Assembly (NCBI GenBank): GCA_030614005.1
Contig: JAUWKS010000043.1
Coordinates: 1-27,199, forward strand
DNA from: Candidatus Heimdallarchaeota archaeon
GTDB taxonomy: Archaea > Asgardarchaeota > Heimdallarchaeia > JABLTI01
DNA: 27,199 nt
Direction of reading: 5' to 3'
This document shows, piece by piece, positions 18,757 through 27,199 of this stretch. Position 1 is the stretch's first letter, and every line of letters begins with the position of its first letter. A model generated the notes under the pieces. It ran no database searches. It was not told the origin of the DNA and saw only the letters and a program-made list of their open reading frames with translations. The position numbers were made by a program, and so were the translations under genes.

Positions 18757-21066
18757 ATGAAAAAAAGTAAATTAATAGCAATTTGTTTTTTCATTTTGTT
18801 TACTTTTCCAATAATCTTTAATGTTTATGCAACAAATATCGCTACCTTTGAATTAACGCCACAAAAAAGAGCTACCTATGATCCATTTGTAGAGGTTAAT
18901 GCTGCATTAGACAGAAATGGAAATAAAATTGATGATCAATTAGAACAAATTGTTTCAAAAGGTTTTACTAGCACCTATTATGATACCATCGTTACTTTTG
19001 ATGAACCTGTAAATGAAGCGATAATCAAAAGTATCAAAGCAGTTGGAGGAGAAGTCCTTTCAACTTGGACTTTAATAAATGGTGCAGCAGTTAGGATAAA
19101 ATCGACAGATCTTACAGCACTATCAACAATAGCTGAAGTAAGTTTTGTTGCAAGAAATGCTCGTACTTGTGCAAAGCTAAGTACTAGTGTTCCACAAATC
19201 AATGTTCGTCCATATGTTTGGGATACACTGGGTTACGAAGGTGATTCAGGTACTACAATAGCCATTCTTGATACTGGAGTTGATGATAGTCATTCTGACC
19301 TTTCAGGCAAAGTTTCCTATTGGAAGGATTTCATTGGTGCTGATGTTAGCACTCCTGGTGATGAATATGTAACTGCAACAGATGAAAATGGTCATGGAAC
19401 TCATTGTTCAAGTATAGCTGCAGGTAGTGGTGCAGCTGGTGGTACTGCTTCAACTGTAGAAGTAACAGGTACACTTGGTGTTCCTGAAGCTCTACCTGGT
19501 GGCAGTGGCTATGTTGTTTATATTGAAGTTGAGTCTACAGGTTCAGTGACTGTTGATTTCACTTGGGAAGAAGAACCGGGTCCATCAAGTCCAACAGACA
19601 CTCTTTTTGTAATGATTGATGTTGATAATAATGGTGCATTTGATGATGCTTATGTCACTGTAGATTATAATAACCAGCCTGGTTCAATTACTACTGGGTC
19701 ATTAAGCCCTGGTTTTTATCCTATGTTAATTGGTGCACATGTAGATAGCGAAATTGATCGCTGTGCAATTATCTATACAATAACAAGACCTGCTTCATCA
19801 ACAGCAGATGGTAATAACAAATATCGTGGTGTTGCTCCAGGTTGTGATGTTGTTGGCTTGAAAGTGCTCGACGATTCTGGTTATGGTACTAGTGTCATAT
19901 TATTGGATGCACTAAATTGGATAAGTGCAAATGGTTTGACATATAACATCGATGTAATTAGTATGTCTCTAGGATTAGATTCCATTCTTTCAGCAGTTGA
20001 TACTGCAGTAAATAACCTAGTTGGATTAGGGTATGTATGTGTTGTTGCAGCAGGAAATGGTTTTACAGATGGAATAACTATTAATTCTCCTGGTACAGCA
20101 GAAAAAGCAATTACTGTAGGTGCAATTGATGATGTAGATAAAATTGCTATCTACTCCTCAAATGGTGTTTCTGGCAGTGGAAAACCTGATATAGTAGCTC
20201 CTGGAGGAGCATATCAATACTTCGCATCAACAGATGAAGATACTCATCCTATTATTGCTGCAGATTCTAATGATGCAGATGTAATAGAAATAGGAAATAC
20301 AGCTACTCCTACGTATTGGGAAACAGATGTTAATTCAAATGACTACGCAGGTTATCAAGGAACAAGTATGGCAACACCTCACATTGCGGGTTTAGTTGCT
20401 CTACTAATAGATGCAATGGGTGCCGATTGGACTCACTCAGAAGCTGATGTTCTTGCAATTAAGAATTATCTTTGTGGCACTGCTACGGAAGTAACCTACG
20501 GTGAAGAACTGACTGTTTATTATAATGAACCCTCTCTAAATAGAGGCGATGCTGATTTAGTCGAAGGTTTTGGCAAAGTGCATGGTGATGCTGCAATCGA
20601 AGCATTTCTATCAACATACACTGCTGGTAATACCGTCACAGAAACTCTAAGTAATTCTCCAACTGGTGTTCAAAGTTGGGCAAGAAAAGTTAATCTTGTT
20701 GGTGGAATCGAATTTACAGCAGGTATTGATATGGATGGAACCGCAGACTATGACCTTTATCTCTATGATCCTGCTCAAGATATGAGTCAATATCTTGGTT
20801 ATTTAGCATCAAGCACTTCTGCTGGCACAGGTTTACCTGAGAATATTCTCTATACCCCCTCATCTGATATGACTGCTTACATCGTTATAAAACGAGTTTC
20901 AGGATCCGGTTCATTTACCTTACAGGCTGAAGCAACCAACGTTGGAACATCTACATCAAGTGGTGGCTTTACTTTTCCATTTGGAATATCTACATTGGCT
21001 TGGATTGCTTTAGGAACTCTAGGATTAGCAAGTGTAACATTTGCTTTTAGAAAACTAAGAAAATAA
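18757..21066 (+). CDS. Secreted, C-terminally anchored S8 (subtilisin-like) serine peptidase
   Basis: Signal peptide and I9-like prodomain. Catalytic triad in AILDTG / HGTHCSS / GTSMATPH, oxyanion motif AAGN. PPC-like domain 'DYDLYLYD', then a Ser/Thr linker, a TM helix and the basic tail RKLRK. Confidence 0.93.
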   Translation: MKKSKLIAICFFILFTFPIIFNVYATNIATFELTPQKRATYDPFVEVNAALDRNGNKIDDQLEQIVSKGFTSTYYDTIVTFDEPVNEAIIKSIKAVGGEVLSTWTLINGAAVRIKSTDLTALSTIAEVSFVARNARTCAKLSTSVPQINVRPYVWDTLGYEGDSGTTIAILDTGVDDSHSDLSGKVSYWKDFIGADVSTPGDEYVTATDENGHGTHCSSIAAGSGAAGGTASTVEVTGTLGVPEALPGGSGYVVYIEVESTGSVTVDFTWEEEPGPSSPTDTLFVMIDVDNNGAFDDAYVTVDYNNQPGSITTGSLSPGFYPMLIGAHVDSEIDRCAIIYTITRPASSTADGNNKYRGVAPGCDVVGLKVLDDSGYGTSVILLDALNWISANGLTYNIDVISMSLGLDSILSAVDTAVNNLVGLGYVCVVAAGNGFTDGITINSPGTAEKAITVGAIDDVDKIAIYSSNGVSGSGKPDIVAPGGAYQYFASTDEDTHPIIAADSNDADVIEIGNTATPTYWETDVNSNDYAGYQGTSMATPHIAGLVALLIDAMGADWTHSEADVLAIKNYLCGTATEVTYGEELTVYYNEPSLNRGDADLVEGFGKVHGDAAIEAFLSTYTAGNTVTETLSNSPTGVQSWARKVNLVGGIEFTAGIDMDGTADYDLYLYDPAQDMSQYLGYLASSTSAGTGLPENILYTPSSDMTAYIVIKRVSGSGSFTLQAEATNVGTSTSSGGFTFPFGISTLAWIALGTLGLASVTFAFRKLRK

Positions 21067-21404: not shown

Positions 21405-24392
21405 ATGGATAACAAAGTAACACTCTTCCAAAAGATAACGCTCGATAATCTAATGTTACATGAATTTACTGAAGTTGACCTTGCTAAAGAGTCAATTACA
21501 TTGATAACTGGTGCGAATGGTTCTGGAAAAACGCAGATATTGGATGGGATTATTATTTGCATTGGGCACATTCCTACTCGAGCAAAGGCTAAAGGGATAG
21601 GCAGTTTGGTTGGGAAAAATGGCAAACATGCGAAAGTAACCCTTGAATTAGCAAATCCAATAATAAACTCTCGTAGAGCAATTACTACTATGGATAAAGA
21701 CCTGAATGCAGTAATTAATTCTGATCGTTTCAAAATAAATGCAAAAATATCTAGAAATGACAGTTCGATAATTTATTCATTAAACAACTCGCGAACAATT
21801 ATTAGAGGACGTTTGGTCTCTAGAAGAGATATTAGACGAATTTTCGAATCAATTGGTGTTCGAGGAGACAATCGATTAGCATTTACAGGAGAAGGCACAG
21901 TAGATGAGTTTGCTTCAAAAAGCGCTAAACGAAAATTGGATGTTTTATTAGATGTTACCGGACTTAAACAATACAGAGAAGAAGTAATAGCTTCTCAAGA
22001 CTCTCTTAGAGCAAGCATTCAGGAAATTGAGCCTTTAAAGCGAAAGTTGGAGACAGAAGGAAAGCTCCTCAATCTATGGAATGATGCTTTGAATATTCTA
22101 AAACAAAAAAAGAAACTAATGATAATGAAAACTAATCTGCAAAATGAAATGGCTTGGTCATATGTTATACGATTAGAAAAAAGAGTAGAGGGATTAAATA
22201 AAGAACGGGTAAAAATTCTAAAACAAAGAAGCGATAATGAAACCGCCATTCAAAAGAAGGATGAAGAGACCCTCGTTCTTAGACGAAAATTAAATTCGTT
22301 AGATGATGAATTAAATTCTTTTGAAGAACAGCAAAGAGTAAAAAATAGACGAGTAATAACTCTTGAGACCCAGCTAGAAAATGACAAAGATAATATTGCT
22401 AGTTTTCAAAAGGAAATTGCAAGATATTCTGAGCAAAAACAACAAATGGAGGCTCTATTAGCAAATAAGGATTTGAGTGCCAAGGATCTTAAAATTCAAG
22501 ATAAGCAAGAAGCTCTCGCAGTTAAATTAAAGAAACTTTCAATCCTGCAAGAGAAATGTTCGAAAGCCGAAAATGCATTAAGACTTTTACGAAAGCAAAT
22601 TATTGATGAACCAGAATTTGATTCATTTACCTCTAATGAGGAAGTTTTCGAGGGGAAAAGATTAACCAAATATGAAAATGAAATGGTTCACGCTTCACAA
22701 ATTTTCCGGCAAAAAGTAAAGCAGATATCAAAATCAGATGAAATTGCTGGACCCATAATTTCTCTAATTAAGATAAAAGATGGGCATAAATCTTGGGAAA
22801 AGGCGGTAAAAACAATCATTGGGCGTAACCTCTATGCATTTATTGCCAAAACAGATGATGCTTATAGGTTAGCAAAACGGATTTATGACGAAACTTGGCC
22901 TCGATGGAAGCCACCATTATCAGTATACAAAGTATCTGCAGAAGATGCAAAAAGAGCTTCCATTACAATAAAGAAACCCGAGTTTAAGGAAATTTATAAC
23001 ATAGCTGCCAACCTGATAGATGGTGATCCATATGCAATTGGATTTTTGAAACGAACAACGAGAAATGCATTAGCTGAAGATAAATACGATCCAAATAGTT
23101 TAACTGGTATTGCAAAGATAATTAAAACTAATATTTTAACTAAATCAGGTAAAAGTTATTACCTATATCACGGTGGTTTCGGAAGACCGCCCGTGCCAAT
23201 TAATAATCCATTAGGATATCAATTAAAACCACAAACTGGCAAAACCAGAATTTCGTTTTCAAATGAAAGAAAAATAAGAGTAGAAATCGCAAAATTAGAA
23301 AAAGAAAGGAGAGACCTAAAATTCGATGAAATTCAAACAATGGGTGCGATTTCAAAATTACATCAAGAAGTTCAAGCGTTAGGATTGCCTGATGAAAAGA
23401 TAATTGGTAAAATTGAAACAATAAATGAAATGATTGCTAATATTGAAGCAAAAGTTGCTGAATTTAAATCGCATTATACTCAACTAGATTCTGAATTGAG
23501 TATTGCTACTACTGCATATACCTCTTTCAAAAACTCCAAGGGAGAAATTACACAAAGAATCAATGAAATTGAGGAGACAATCGATTTACTAAGAATCGAA
23601 CAACATAGCTTAAAAGAAAAAGGGTCGAGGTTGTTAACTCTCGAACTTAGCTATGATGCAGAATATGATGAATTTATTGACGAGAAAAAAGAACGAGAAG
23701 AAACCGCCAAGAGAAAGGGAGAACGCCCTGAAGAAATTAGAAACTATTCGGATATTAGAGATGAGCTCAATAGAATAGAGGGACATCTTGAGTCAATCGG
23801 TATAAGTAATGTCGATGAAGATAAAATTGAAGATCAAAAAACAAAGGTTGAATCTCTTAAAAAATATATGACTGAAAGAGAGGTACATATAACTCGATTG
23901 CGTGCTGATTTAGAGGCAAGATTGGCCTTCTGGAATGGTGAATTGCAAGAGATAATAACTAATATCTCAAGAGCTATGAAGTTACTTCTTGGAGGAATTT
24001 TTGATAAGGTTCGTTTGAAAGTAACAAATATCAATAAACCAGATGAAGCTGGATTATACATTGAAGCAATTACAAAGGGAGACGATTTTAGGGACTTCCG
24101 TGAATTAAGTGGTGGAGAAAAAGTGCTTGCAATAGAAGGCTTAATTCTAGCTATGCATACTCTCACCGATTCACCAATTCATGCAATTGATGAATTTACA
24201 CAAAGATTAGATGAGAAAAATAAAGCACTAGCTTTTAGTATTGCAATAAGGACACAAAAATTAGCCAATGAAAACTCTCGTTTTATACCACAATTTATGC
24301 TTTTATGTCCAGAAGCTATTGATGTTAAGCTCTCGGAAAGTATACATCATGTGGTTGTTTCAGAAATGAAGGTGATGAACGTTGAACACTGA
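21405..24392 (+). CDS. SMC-family ATPase, SMC5/6-related type
   Basis: Walker A GANGSGKT, long coiled coils, and a central globular hinge ('IAGPIISLIKIKDGHKSWEKAVKTIIGRNLYAFI'). Signature LSGGEK, Walker B/D-loop 'SPIHAIDEFTQRLD', terminal strand 'QFMLLCP'. No central CxxC zinc hook. Confidence 0.9.
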   Translation: MDNKVTLFQKITLDNLMLHEFTEVDLAKESITLITGANGSGKTQILDGIIICIGHIPTRAKAKGIGSLVGKNGKHAKVTLELANPIINSRRAITTMDKDLNAVINSDRFKINAKISRNDSSIIYSLNNSRTIIRGRLVSRRDIRRIFESIGVRGDNRLAFTGEGTVDEFASKSAKRKLDVLLDVTGLKQYREEVIASQDSLRASIQEIEPLKRKLETEGKLLNLWNDALNILKQKKKLMIMKTNLQNEMAWSYVIRLEKRVEGLNKERVKILKQRSDNETAIQKKDEETLVLRRKLNSLDDELNSFEEQQRVKNRRVITLETQLENDKDNIASFQKEIARYSEQKQQMEALLANKDLSAKDLKIQDKQEALAVKLKKLSILQEKCSKAENALRLLRKQIIDEPEFDSFTSNEEVFEGKRLTKYENEMVHASQIFRQKVKQISKSDEIAGPIISLIKIKDGHKSWEKAVKTIIGRNLYAFIAKTDDAYRLAKRIYDETWPRWKPPLSVYKVSAEDAKRASITIKKPEFKEIYNIAANLIDGDPYAIGFLKRTTRNALAEDKYDPNSLTGIAKIIKTNILTKSGKSYYLYHGGFGRPPVPINNPLGYQLKPQTGKTRISFSNERKIRVEIAKLEKERRDLKFDEIQTMGAISKLHQEVQALGLPDEKIIGKIETINEMIANIEAKVAEFKSHYTQLDSELSIATTAYTSFKNSKGEITQRINEIEETIDLLRIEQHSLKEKGSRLLTLELSYDAEYDEFIDEKKEREETAKRKGERPEEIRNYSDIRDELNRIEGHLESIGISNVDEDKIEDQKTKVESLKKYMTEREVHITRLRADLEARLAFWNGELQEIITNISRAMKLLLGGIFDKVRLKVTNINKPDEAGLYIEAITKGDDFRDFRELSGGEKVLAIEGLILAMHTLTDSPIHAIDEFTQRLDEKNKALAFSIAIRTQKLANENSRFIPQFMLLCPEAIDVKLSESIHHVVVSEMKVMNVEH

Positions 24393-25287
24393 AGATGATA
24401 CTAATAATATTGAATTTATAATAGAGTCAAATTCAGGTGAATCTTCAACAGATGATGCTAAAAAAGGAGAAAATATCTCAGAACCAAAGGTCAAAGATAA
24501 ATCTAAATCTTCAAAGAAAAAAGTATCTTCAGTGTCTAATATAGAGAAAAAATTATGGAATGTCGCTAAAAAATACAAGTCGTTTTTCGATAAAGATGAA
24601 GTTCCTCAAATTGCTGAAAGTGAAGAAGATCGCCAAGAAGTATCTAATGCATATATGAAAATATCAACAAAACGTCATAGACAGTTGGATTCACGCGTTT
24701 ATCAATCTCTAACAAAAATGCAAAGGACACGAGATGCTAAAGTCGCTTTAGAAGGAACGACTGAAAAAGATAGATTACGAATGATTGCTTGGGAAGTGAA
24801 GATTCGTCTACAACCAATTATTTTTGCTGTAGGCGATAGCACAATAGAAATGGATATTTTTAACCTTCATAAGACCGGAGCCGATGTTCGAATTATTGAG
24901 GGCACCAGTCAAGAATTACTGATTGAAGATAATATCCTTGATGAGAACAGCATTGCAATAATTGATGACTTGCCCCTCAGAAAATTGACTAAAGACAAGA
25001 AAGCAAAACTGAAAAAGGAGATCATTGAGAAATTTGGTGGAAAGATTTTCTCAAAAGATGATTTTAATAGAAAACTTACCAGTCTTTATGCTGATTTGAT
25101 TTCCTTGATGGTGCGAGAAAAACAAATTATACTTGTAAAACAGCAAGATAATCGATTCAAGTTTATAACCGTAGAACAAGACGGAGATGTTGACTTTGAA
25201 CATTTAGAAAGTCAATCGCTCGTAATTACACCAAAAATGGTGCAGCTACAGAGTGTAGTTATGAGAAGAAGGAGTAAGAAGCTATGA
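24382..25287 (+). CDS. Putative kleisin (ScpA/Nse4-like) subunit
   Basis: TTG start after AGGTGA, overlapping the SMC stop by 11 nt. Charged, disordered-looking N-terminus. C-terminal 'LTSLYADLISLMVREKQIILVKQQDNRFKFITV' resembles the kleisin C-terminal winged helix. The ORF is secure; the kleisin call is an inference. Confidence 0.55.
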   Translation: MNTEDDTNNIEFIIESNSGESSTDDAKKGENISEPKVKDKSKSSKKKVSSVSNIEKKLWNVAKKYKSFFDKDEVPQIAESEEDRQEVSNAYMKISTKRHRQLDSRVYQSLTKMQRTRDAKVALEGTTEKDRLRMIAWEVKIRLQPIIFAVGDSTIEMDIFNLHKTGADVRIIEGTSQELLIEDNILDENSIAIIDDLPLRKLTKDKKAKLKKEIIEKFGGKIFSKDDFNRKLTSLYADLISLMVREKQIILVKQQDNRFKFITVEQDGDVDFEHLESQSLVITPKMVQLQSVVMRRRSKKL

Positions 25288-25913
25288 TTGATAACAGGCT
25301 AGAAGATTACGACGAAGCAGTGGAAAACACCAGAGGCTCTTCCGAAGTAGAAGAAAAATTAGCAGAAGATTTTGGAGAAATGGATCCACAGTTATTTGTA
25401 GCATTATCTTCGCGTTGGAGAAGAGAAAATGGAGCCCTTGCTTTTGGTATAGAGAAAAGACAATTGCGCAATAAGACAGGTTTATCATTGATGGAACTTG
25501 AAACACTGCTTGAAGATTTTGGTAAAAAAGTAAAAAGAATAGGATTGGAACTAATTTCATATGTTGAGAATAATCAAGAATGGTATTGTTTACGGTCGAT
25601 ATTTGTCGTTCCAAATGAATTGTCATTAGATGAACAAGCAGTTTTAGGAACAATCATTTTCTTAATAGAGAAAAAAACTGATCACCGAAGAAGGGAAGAA
25701 ACACCAATTACTTCAACAGAATTAATTGAAAGATTGGTAAAAAGAGGATACTACTCTGAATATACATTAACGAAAATCTTACGTAGATTAGATAATTCTG
25801 GTTATGTCCGAAGAGGGGGAAACAAAATACGCTACGGTGCTAGAACAAAGATTGAGATTTCTTCTGAAAGGCGGAAAGAAATAGCTGATAGAACAGAAGG
25901 TATGCTCCTATAA
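25284..25913 (+). CDS. Tandem winged-helix KITE protein (Nse1/Nse3-MAGE-like)
   Basis: ATGA overlap with the upstream gene. 'LLEDFGKKVKRIGLELI' matches WH-A, 'LSLDEQAVLGTIIFLI' and 'ILRRLDNSGYV' match WH-B, and 'IRYGARTKIEI' matches the Nse1/MAGE C-terminal G-x-R-x-x-x-E motif. Confidence 0.7.
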   Translation: MIDNRLEDYDEAVENTRGSSEVEEKLAEDFGEMDPQLFVALSSRWRRENGALAFGIEKRQLRNKTGLSLMELETLLEDFGKKVKRIGLELISYVENNQEWYCLRSIFVVPNELSLDEQAVLGTIIFLIEKKTDHRRREETPITSTELIERLVKRGYYSEYTLTKILRRLDNSGYVRRGGNKIRYGARTKIEISSERRKEIADRTEGMLL

Positions 25914-25933: not shown

Positions 25934-26422
25934 ATGGCCGTTGTAACTACTACTACTGTTTCGGTTAGATGTGCAGGACACAATGGTAGAGCCACGCTAA
26001 AAGAAGCTGTAGAAGCAGGTTGGAGAATGTGCAGAGTCTGTAGGTCATTTATCTGTCCAAAATGTATCGAAGAGTTTGATTTAAAAATGAATGGCACTTG
26101 TCCATCTTTTATTTTCGGAATGGATCAACACCAGCTTAGTCCAGGACCTATTCCAGTTGAAGAAGTAATCCTATTTGCAGAATCAAACAAACAAGAAGGA
26201 ATAACCGGTGGATTGTTAGAAGCACTCTTCTTTGAAGATGAACAAATGGGTTTTATGCCTTTTTATGCTACTATTGAGAAGAAAAAAGAGGAAGAAGAAG
26301 AGGAGGAAGATGAATTAAGTTTAGAGCCTCCAAAAATACAAGAAGAAATGTGGTCCTCTTTCGGATTTGTGATGACTAAAAGAAGACGAGGCAAATTCAT
26401 TACTTGGGAGAAAATTGGTTAA
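25934..26422 (+). CDS. RING-like zinc-finger protein with acidic tail (putative E3 ligase)
   Basis: GAGGTGA RBS. Ligand pattern C13-x2-H16-x16-C33-x2-C36-x4-C41-x2-C44-x11-C56(P)-x9-H66, followed by an E7-D-E tract and C-terminal KRRRGK. Confidence 0.65.
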   Translation: MAVVTTTTVSVRCAGHNGRATLKEAVEAGWRMCRVCRSFICPKCIEEFDLKMNGTCPSFIFGMDQHQLSPGPIPVEEVILFAESNKQEGITGGLLEALFFEDEQMGFMPFYATIEKKKEEEEEEEDELSLEPPKIQEEMWSSFGFVMTKRRRGKFITWEKIG

Positions 26423-26456: not shown

Positions 26457-27092
26457 GTGACAGAAAAAAAACAAAAACAGAAAAAACTACTTTCCGAATT
26501 ACTTGGTGAAGTTGCACCTGAGGAAAAACCTTCCGAAAAAATTGAAGAAGAATCTCGGTCTGTTGACACTGAAGAGGTTGCAGAGGAAATTCTAGAGGAA
26601 TATCCACTAAATGAGATCTATCCTGTATATATTCTACATAGAGTCGTTTATGAAACAATAGTTATGTGTAAGAAAGCCATTCCAAATGAAGCAATTGGAA
26701 TTCTCTTAGGATATAAGATGCAATACAAAGGAAAGAATTACGTCAAAGTAGTTGATTGGGTCACAGGCAAAGCAAACCAAAGTCAGGTATTTGCAGAATT
26801 TACACCTGAGGGCGTAAGACAATACACTACGTTAATTGATGAAAGATACGGTGAAAGTGAAAATCGTCCAAGAATTGTGGGTATAATTCATTCCCATCCA
26901 TTTGGGTCTAATCCACATTTTTCAGGAACAGATTATAATACATTTCTGAATTTTCCTTATGATGCAGAGCACAATGTATTCGTTCTAGTAGATCCAAAAT
27001 CTGGCTACTACAAGACATATATGGTACTAACTAATGAAGAAAAACAAAAGGATTTGATTGAAGTAAACTGGGTTGAATATACAGCACGATAA
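26457..27092 (+). CDS. JAB/MPN+ (JAMM) metallo-isopeptidase
   Basis: 'PNEAIGILLG' supplies the catalytic Glu, 'VGIIHSHPFGSNPHFSGTDYNTF' supplies HxH..S..D, and 'VFVLVDP' follows. GTG start after AGGTGG. Confidence 0.9.
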   Translation: MTEKKQKQKKLLSELLGEVAPEEKPSEKIEEESRSVDTEEVAEEILEEYPLNEIYPVYILHRVVYETIVMCKKAIPNEAIGILLGYKMQYKGKNYVKVVDWVTGKANQSQVFAEFTPEGVRQYTTLIDERYGESENRPRIVGIIHSHPFGSNPHFSGTDYNTFLNFPYDAEHNVFVLVDPKSGYYKTYMVLTNEEKQKDLIEVNWVEYTAR

Positions 27093-27104
27093 AGAGGTGA
27101 AAAA

Positions 27105-27199
27105 ATGACTGAAAAACCACTAAATGTAGGATTTTATGAGGATGATCTTGAAGATCGTAATAGACGATATTACGGAACAGATAACCTCAAACGAATAAA
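27105..27199 (+). CDS. 5' fragment of next operon gene (truncated by window end); possibly E1/ThiF-like
   Basis: GAGGTGA at 27094-27100, ATG at 27105, open to the window end: MTEKPLNVGFYEDDLEDRNRRYYGTDNLKRI. The gene start is well supported; the E1-like identity is weak. Confidence 0.6.
   Translation, partial: MTEKPLNVGFYEDDLEDRNRRYYGTDNLKRI

Follow-up and report, generated by a model that had tools for sequence, protein, structure and literature searches.

The SMC gene and its motifs

The stretch of DNA analysed here, referred to as the window, is a whole 27.2-kb contig (C84) of the 3.6-Mb assembly of a Candidatus Heimdallarchaeota archaeon (33.5% GC, 90% completeness), and our subject is an SMC gene in it (21405..24392, forward strand) together with the operon that this gene heads. 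The product, P0001, is a protein of 995 amino acids that can be assigned to the SMC5/6-related SMC ATPases by the Pfam SMC_N domain, by the match of its family profile to yeast Smc6 and by phylogenetic trees. Its architecture is that of a complete SMC protein: the three ATPase motifs are present, and the chain runs from an amino-terminal head (residues ~1-205) through a first arm, a hinge of SMC fold (~444-594) and a second arm to a carboxy-terminal head (C-head, ~835-995), both arms being coiled coils. SMC_N (PF02463) is matched with 71.9 bits (cut-off 40), and SMC_hinge weakly (E 0.005). The NCBIfam equivalogs for canonical SMC proteins, in contrast, score 95.2 bits (TIGR02169; cut-off 729) and 71.7 bits (TIGR02168; cut-off 567). 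Because SMC_N is matched and the canonical models score so far under their cut-offs, P0001 can be described as a divergent SMC protein.

An alignment of 24 homologues, colinear with P0001 and reaching down to 28% identity, was used as the family profile; close homologues (95-57% identity) are annotated as proteins of Heimdallarchaeota or of Asgard metagenome-assembled genomes. The strings that a preliminary description of this DNA had quoted all sit at their places in the open reading frame (ORF) 21405-24392(+), Pro969 included, and are not due to chance, as residues within them are invariant in the 24 homologues. P0001 has all three motifs typical of the SMC superfamily, and each is conserved in the family: Walker A (GANGSGKT), signature (LSGGEK) and Walker B (HAIDE). 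All motif positions given here are on the forward strand. In Walker A (21510..21533) residues G36, N38, G39, S40, G41 and K42 are invariant, as are S902, G903, G904 and E905 in the ABC signature (24105..24122). The Walker B and D-loop region (SPIHAIDEFTQRLDEKN, also listed as IHAIDEFTQRLD; 24171..24221) carries the invariant residues D929, E930 and F931. A parallel between this region and Smc5/6 had been proposed, and it is borne out by the C-head profile, in which 'sPlhaiDeFtqrLD' aligns with 'CPFRVVDEINQGMD' of human SMC5.

The H-loop position, QFMLLCPE (24291..24314), is the most distinctive of these sites, with Pro969 (CCA, 24309-24311) replacing the switch residue. Its family consensus is QF(I/M)L(L/I)(C/T)P, and Q963, F964 and P969 are invariant in all 24 homologues. 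The preliminary description had compared this terminal strand with that of Smc5/6, which characteristically reads TP; consistent with this, 'pqFilltPeal' aligns with 'SQYFFITPKLL' of human SMC5 in the C-head profile. It had also attributed the ending ITH to canonical SMC and Rad50 alike, which holds for Rad50, where TH is found, and fails for canonical SMC of archaea and eukaryotes; the canonical copy in this genome reads VISLR.

The Q-loop region (IGVRGDNRLAFTGEGTVDEFA, 21852..21914) tells a more mixed story. A parallel to Smc5 had been suggested for it, and the region is indeed homologous, aligning in a computed alignment with 'FLSQDAARSF' of Smc6, but Glu163 (codon 21891-21893) stands in place of the key glutamine. 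At this site FT(G/E)EG, with Glu163 as its E, is found in the family, as against (T/S)QD in SMC6 and QG in canonical SMC. The hinge domain (22734..23186), delimited by an AF2 model, fold comparison and a hinge profile, contains the strings GPIISLIKIKD (22749-22781) and WEKAVKTIIGRNLYAFI (22794-22844), and G449 and P450 are invariant across the family. Its proposed resemblance to Smc5/6 hinges is recovered at the sequence level, where 'iGPiislisikegeeewekavkaliG' aligns with 'IGPLGSLVTIRKGFEKWTRSIQRAIS' of yeast Smc6.

Comparison of motif states in the 96-sequence alignment that underlies the trees described below reveals a pattern common to SMC6 and its archaeal relatives: their H-loop position is (T/C)P without exception, in the eukaryotic proteins and the archaeal ones alike. 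Members of the P0001 family combine (C/T)P with DEF(T) at the D-loop and Glu for Gln at the Q-loop; other Asgard relatives have (C/T)P and DEF or DEV and have lost the Q-loop glutamine. Eukaryotic SMC6 proteins have TP(Q/N) and DEF or DEW (DEFD/DEWD), and Thor-like proteins have TP and DEV, with the glutamine kept in both. Canonical SMC proteins, along with SMC1, SMC3 and SMC4, have (S/T)(L/F)(R/K) and DEID or DEVD, and Rad50 has TH and DEP; these groups also keep the glutamine. Among the Asgard relatives, P0167, P0174 and P0184 (~1044-1087 amino acids) have, in addition to the loss of the Q-loop glutamine, degenerate signature motifs (QSSGER, HSSGQK and HSTGQK), which suggests that the ATPase sites of this sister group may be weakened or altered.

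Relationship to eukaryotic SMC6

Among proteins of known structure, the best match of the P0001 family is Smc6. Searched against the PDB, the family profile matches yeast Smc6 with 172 bits (E 1.5e-49) in a single alignment of positions 9-950 with 83-1083, so that the two are colinear over their full length. Human SMC6 follows at 135 bits, and SMC4 (87 bits), human SMC5 (85 bits) and Pyrococcus furiosus Smc (80 bits) come next, at a wide distance; MukB, JetC and RecN do not occur in the best 60 PDB matches. A profile of the hinge alone has yeast Smc6 as its sole PDB match (33 bits, E 3.4e-7) and matches none of the many canonical SMC hinges in that database. The best match of the C-head profile is human SMC5 (53.5 bits), in an alignment that spans the TP motif. 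As a control, the canonical SMC of the same genome was searched in the same database and retrieved P. furiosus Smc (390 bits) and SMC2, SMC3, SMC4 and SMC1, with no SMC5 or SMC6 in the best 60 matches.

The same ranking is seen in much larger protein collections. A search with the family profile of 1.84 billion (1.84e9) representative proteins places, among the best 150 matches, the family itself on top with more than 450 bits, followed by full-length archaeal relatives of ~1000-1090 amino acids from Hodarchaeota, Odinarchaeota and Promethearchaeota (340-230 bits), then by Bathyarchaeota forms, and then by eukaryotic SMC6 proteins at 165-190 bits, which include a chytrid SMC6, Candida Smc6 and a Pelomyxa SMC. 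In a separate word-indexed search, canonical SMC proteins score at most 146 bits among the matches listed, and SMC5 is absent from the 120 matches listed. The profile comparison that the preliminary description had proposed thus ranks eukaryotic SMC6 above canonical SMC. One 784-residue protein annotated as coming from a Planctomycetes bacterium (P0047) reaches 574 bits with the family profile; its bacterial label could reflect contamination, mis-binning or horizontal transfer.

The phylogenetic analysis is based on 96 sequences, for which 491 head and hinge columns were kept. The set comprises the family, other archaeal relatives, 13 eukaryotic SMC6 proteins, archaeal and bacterial canonical SMC proteins, eukaryotic SMC1, SMC3 and SMC4, and Rad50; the Rad50 outgroup was taken from other Asgard genomes because the NCBIfam model NF003034 found no Rad50 in this one. 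In the main maximum-likelihood tree (IQ-TREE, 72 rows, LG+C20+F+G4 PMSF, rooted on Rad50), the canonical clade (support 100/99) holds the canonical SMC of this genome (P0124) along with SMC1, SMC3 and SMC4, and P0001 falls outside it, as it does outside the Rad50 clade. A second clade (100/98) unites the Bathyarchaeota forms, eukaryotic SMC6 (100/100) and an Asgard group that includes P0001 (100/98), with proteins of Thor- and Jordarchaeales branching immediately outside. A tree from 939 columns has the same backbone, and a constraint that joins the Asgard group to canonical SMC loses 24.1 log-likelihood units and is rejected in the approximately unbiased (AU) test. By profiles and phylogeny together, P0001 is one of the archaeal SMC5/6-related proteins, in a group to which eukaryotic SMC6 also belongs. 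Eukaryotic SMC6 is monophyletic and does not include P0001, which by the tree is thus not a nested SMC6 orthologue.

Also inside the SMC5/6-related clade are four SMC-like proteins of 660-685 amino acids (P0185, P0186, P0193 and P0204), from Bathyarchaeota and unnamed sources, which sit beside forms of 980-1047 amino acids, at least one of them from Bathyarchaeota. P0185 has TP at the H-loop position, and P0185 and P0193 score 60-77 bits with the NCBIfam ASRP model (cut-off 300). These proteins may be short-armed or hinge-less derivatives.

The hinge was also modelled with AF2 (residues 400-660; pLDDT 85, with helices on both flanks). In VIA-align comparisons the model reaches Z scores of 13.6 with SMC3, 13.3 with SMC4 and 13.2 with Smc6, compared with 5.7 for JetC and 4.5 for MukB. 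The predicted fold thus confirms the SMC class and leaves the subtype undecided, so the structural comparison proposed in the preliminary description succeeds for the class and does not extend to a distinction among SMC3, SMC4 and Smc6. The same model bears on the suggestion that P0001 is a Rad50/SbcC-type protein or another archaeal SMC-like repair ATPase (ASRP, arcadin-4 or coalescin). Weak matches to the amino-terminal P-loop (37 bits for Rad50 models and 14 bits for ASRP) and the lack of a Rad50 detectable with NF003034 in this genome could be read in that way, but all of these scores are far under the curated cut-offs, the hinge has an SMC fold and not a zinc hook (CxxC), the H-loop position reads CPE where Rad50 has TH, and Asgard Rad50 proteins form the outgroup with 100/100 support. 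This identity is scarcely credible, and the hinge model and the tree effectively refute it.

A fast-evolving paralogue of canonical archaeal SMC, resembling SMC5/6 through convergence and long-branch attraction, is another alternative. The family and eukaryotic SMC6 are both long-branched, many rows of the alignment deviate in amino-acid composition, the best NCBIfam models for P0001 are of the SMC_prok type (95 and 72 bits), and the C-head is nearly tied between SMC5 and SMC1. On the other hand, a mixture model was used for the tree, in which the family was not drawn to the long Rad50 outgroup, the hinge profile finds Smc6 only, despite the many canonical hinges available to it, Smc6 aligns colinearly from end to end, the states (T/C)P and DEF are common to both proteins, and the AU test disfavours the canonical placement. 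We therefore regard this explanation as very unlikely.

Several observations nevertheless weigh against the assignment of P0001 to an SMC5/6-type complex, or limit how far it can be taken. The hinge fold does not discriminate the subtype, as neither Foldseek (pdb and afdb_swissprot) nor VIA-align separates Smc6 from the hinges of cohesin, condensin and bacterial proteins, and the C-head alone barely discriminates (53.5 bits for SMC5 and 49 bits for SMC1). The Q-loop glutamine that SMC6 keeps is a glutamate in P0001. The tree covers neither SMC5 and SMC2 nor MukB, JetC and RecN, and the archaeal sister of SMC6 varies, with support of 59/24 in the 491-column tree and a pairing of SMC6 with Bathyarchaeota (SH-aLRT 86) in the 939-column tree. 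The AU test gives a p-AU of 0.022, for a group that was named after the tree was known. In addition, the kleisin identity of the second operon gene product (see below) follows from position only, because its sequence matches no kleisin, and homodimerization, ATPase activity and DNA binding of P0001 are predictions. Even so, the profile ranking, the canonical-SMC control, the maximum-likelihood trees and the AU test agree with the preliminary description in placing P0001 with SMC5/6 and not with canonical SMC, Rad50, JetC or MukB.

Operon and partner proteins

P0001 heads a conserved four-gene operon, the third gene of which encodes a protein with a predicted kite fold. The order of an SMC gene followed by genes for proteins of 231-290, 187-239 and 147-162 amino acids is kept in 14 aligned loci and in further listed loci of the family, and spans loci from 69% to ~30% SMC identity. 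The second gene (24382..25287, forward strand) shares its first 11 nucleotides with the end of the SMC gene and encodes P0002, a candidate kleisin of 301 amino acids by its position; a gene for 231-290 amino acids occupies this position in 14/14 aligned family loci. Searches for a kleisin match to P0002 in Pfam (E up to 10) and PADLOC, by profile against the PDB, by hhalign against the ScpA of this genome and in the ESM Atlas returned nothing usable, and a complex predicted for the two SMC heads (N-head and C-head) with P0002 scored too near the control.

The third gene (25284..25913, forward strand) encodes P0125, a protein of 209 amino acids that is predicted to be a kite subunit with a tandem winged helix (AF2 model, pLDDT 82). 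The leading Foldseek matches of the model are ScpB, MukE, Nse1, Nse3/MAGE and JetB. Among two-domain matches, Nse1 ranks first (7dg2_A; Z 10.7 over 160 residues), with ScpB (8.7) and JetB (8.4) within ~2 Z units, and a sequence profile of the kite family searched against the PDB yielded generic winged-helix matches only. The fourth gene (25934..26422, forward strand), also kept in position in the 14 aligned loci, encodes P0126, a putative zinc-finger protein of 162 amino acids. Its cysteine-rich amino terminus contains C13, CxxC at 33-36, CxxC at 41-44 and C56, and an acidic stretch is present as well. Pfam contains no significant family for P0126 and the ESM Atlas no usable match. By analogy, it could be a zinc module comparable to the RING of Nse1 or Nse2.

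Beyond the operon, a Prok-JAB/JAMM gene lies on its 3' side, in 26457-27199, and the contig stops within the start of the next ORF. In a 69%-identical locus (L019:13009-16162), a ThiF/E1 gene and three small ORFs come after the JAB gene. Because a 32%-identical locus is without JAB and ThiF genes, such a ubiquitin-like cassette can be tied to one (closer) subclade only. On the 5' side of the SMC gene (18757-21066) is a gene for a 769-residue subtilase (Peptidase_S8, 152 bits) with a signal-anchor-like amino terminus and a carboxy-terminal hydrophobic anchor, which appears to be unrelated to the SMC operon.

The family is widespread within parts of the Asgard archaea. Among 150 Asgard genomes sampled, strong matches were found in 12/14 and 18/19 genomes of two families and in four families with a single genome each, and in 0/4 and 0/7 genomes of two other families of the same class. 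This distribution bears on the alternative that P0001 is the motor of a mobile SMC defence system of the Wadjet/Lamassu type, directed against plasmids or viruses and not part of chromosomal housekeeping. Such a role would fit the PADLOC match to LmuB (59 bits, E 1e-16, in a collection without curated cut-offs), the transposon-type (OrfB_IS605/TnpB) and homing-endonuclease-type (LAGLIDADG) genes beside one homologous locus, and flanking genes that vary between loci; the eukaryotic Smc5/6 complex, moreover, restricts extrachromosomal DNA (PMC10586767). However, the presence of the family in most genomes of two Asgard families looks lineage-wide and not patchy, and Pfam and PADLOC scans of the operon reveal no JetD-type or LmuA-type nuclease. 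JetC models reach ~20 bits, and LmuB falls far short of the Smc6 score (JetC, MukB and LmuB being outside the scope of the tree), and the predicted hinge compares with SMC hinges at Z scores above 13, as against the much lower values for JetC and MukB. A defence function of this kind is therefore unlikely.

A probable second SMC complex and its known relatives

The preliminary description had spoken of only one SMC gene, which is correct within the window; the genome, however, also encodes a canonical SMC with ScpA and ScpB. The canonical SMC (P0124; TIGR02169, 826 bits) is a 1213-codon frame on contig C9, with ScpA directly downstream (PF02616, 28.8 bits; cut-off 24.6), and ScpB is on contig C82 (119 bits). 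Searching the 90% complete genome with P0001 for a second copy of the family or an SMC5 partner returned P0001 itself and a weak match to the canonical SMC.

Taken together, these results make it probable that P0001 provides the ATPase for a second, SMC5/6-type SMC complex in a Heimdall-group Asgard archaeon that keeps its canonical SMC-ScpAB alongside. Since there is one gene copy per genome, P0001 presumably forms a homodimer, most likely through the hinge, and the suggestion of the preliminary description that this homodimer predates the duplication that gave rise to Smc5 and Smc6 is plausible, P0001 lying outside the eukaryotic SMC6 clade. P0002 would bridge the heads as kleisin, and dimers of the kite subunit would sit on P0002. 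As in Smc5/6, the engaged heads may bind and hydrolyse ATP and so drive the clamping or entrapment of DNA or the extrusion of loops, with Glu163 probably substituting for the Q-loop glutamine; an H-loop histidine is absent, as it is from SMC5/6. The cellular role of such a complex could be in repair or in the support of replication, or in the control of extrachromosomal DNA.

P0001 adds to a class of archaeal SMC5/6-related proteins that is already published. Two sources describe this class. An 'SMC5/6-related aSMC' was defined in TACK, Asgard and other archaea (Yoshinaga & Inagaki 2021; PMC8665677), and TACK and Asgard archaea were described as having two complete SMC-kleisin-kite operons, one of them SMC5/6-related, with additional copies in Hodarchaeales (van Hooff et al.; bioRxiv 10.1101/2024.01.07.573240). 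Supplementary Table 3 of the latter assigns SMC5/6-related SMCs and Nse1/3-related kites to UBA460, Kariarchaeaceae and Hodarchaeales within Heimdallarchaeia. Like the proteins described in these sources, P0001 is a second SMC beside a canonical one and groups with eukaryotic SMC6. Its operon likewise has SMC, kleisin-position gene and kite in order, where the known operons have an Nse4-like kleisin and an Nse1/3-like kite. In contrast to the other archaeal SMC5/6-related SMCs, which score at most 340 bits to its profile, P0001 belongs to a tight Asgard subfamily in which that score exceeds 450 bits. The subfamily also has the Q-loop glutamate and a fourth gene for a cysteine-rich protein of ~150 amino acids, neither of which is encountered in the portions of PMC8665677 and 10.1101/2024.01.07.573240 drawn on here. 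These two features may be new details.

The comparison with the two best known relatives can be summarized at the level of architecture and motifs. P0001 resembles eukaryotic SMC6 in its best full-length and sole hinge match in the PDB, in the combination of TP and DEF states, in the lack of an H-loop histidine, and in its length, which is well under the 1213 amino acids of the canonical SMC of this genome. It differs from eukaryotic SMC6 in lying outside the SMC6 clade, in the Q-loop glutamate and in being encoded by a single gene, with a presumed homodimer instead of the SMC5/SMC6 heterodimer, and no relatives of Nse2, Nse5 or Nse6 were identified for its system. With the canonical, condensin-like archaeal SMC-ScpAB, P0001 shares the overall SMC architecture, the SMC hinge fold and a kite partner; unlike it, P0001 scores very low with TIGR02169 (95 bits; cut-off 729) and falls in a separate clade, the canonical system being encoded elsewhere in the genome.

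A bolder proposal would make the Asgard subfamily, with its relatives in Hod-, Odin- and Promethearchaeota, the specific sister of eukaryotic SMC5/6, and the operon a pre-duplication Smc5/6-Nse core that includes a forerunner of the RING/zinc module and is linked in one subclade to a ubiquitin-like conjugation cassette. We consider this doubtful and offer it tentatively.

To our knowledge, SMC5/6 is the least understood of the eukaryotic SMC complexes, and its origin bears on DNA organization and repair in the archaeal ancestor from which eukaryotes arose. Because the existence of two SMC complexes in TACK/Asgard ancestors, one of them SMC5/6-like, is already published, the present locus contributes a further example and motif-level detail and not a new concept. 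The yeast Smc5/6 complex has eight subunits, and a four-gene Asgard version with a presumed homodimer would be simpler for biochemistry and structure determination. The natural change from glutamine to glutamate in the Q-loop offers, in addition, a direct test of how much alteration the ATPase site tolerates.

One further observation concerns the canonical SMC gene (C9, L009:1474-5112), in which no ATG, GTG or TTG precedes the conserved amino terminus and Walker A, the first such codon lying 106 codons downstream of the start of the hidden Markov model match. The sequence GGTGA, followed after 7 nucleotides by CTG-GTT-CAT-ATT-AAA, suggests that translation of this gene may begin at a non-canonical start codon, CTG or ATT.

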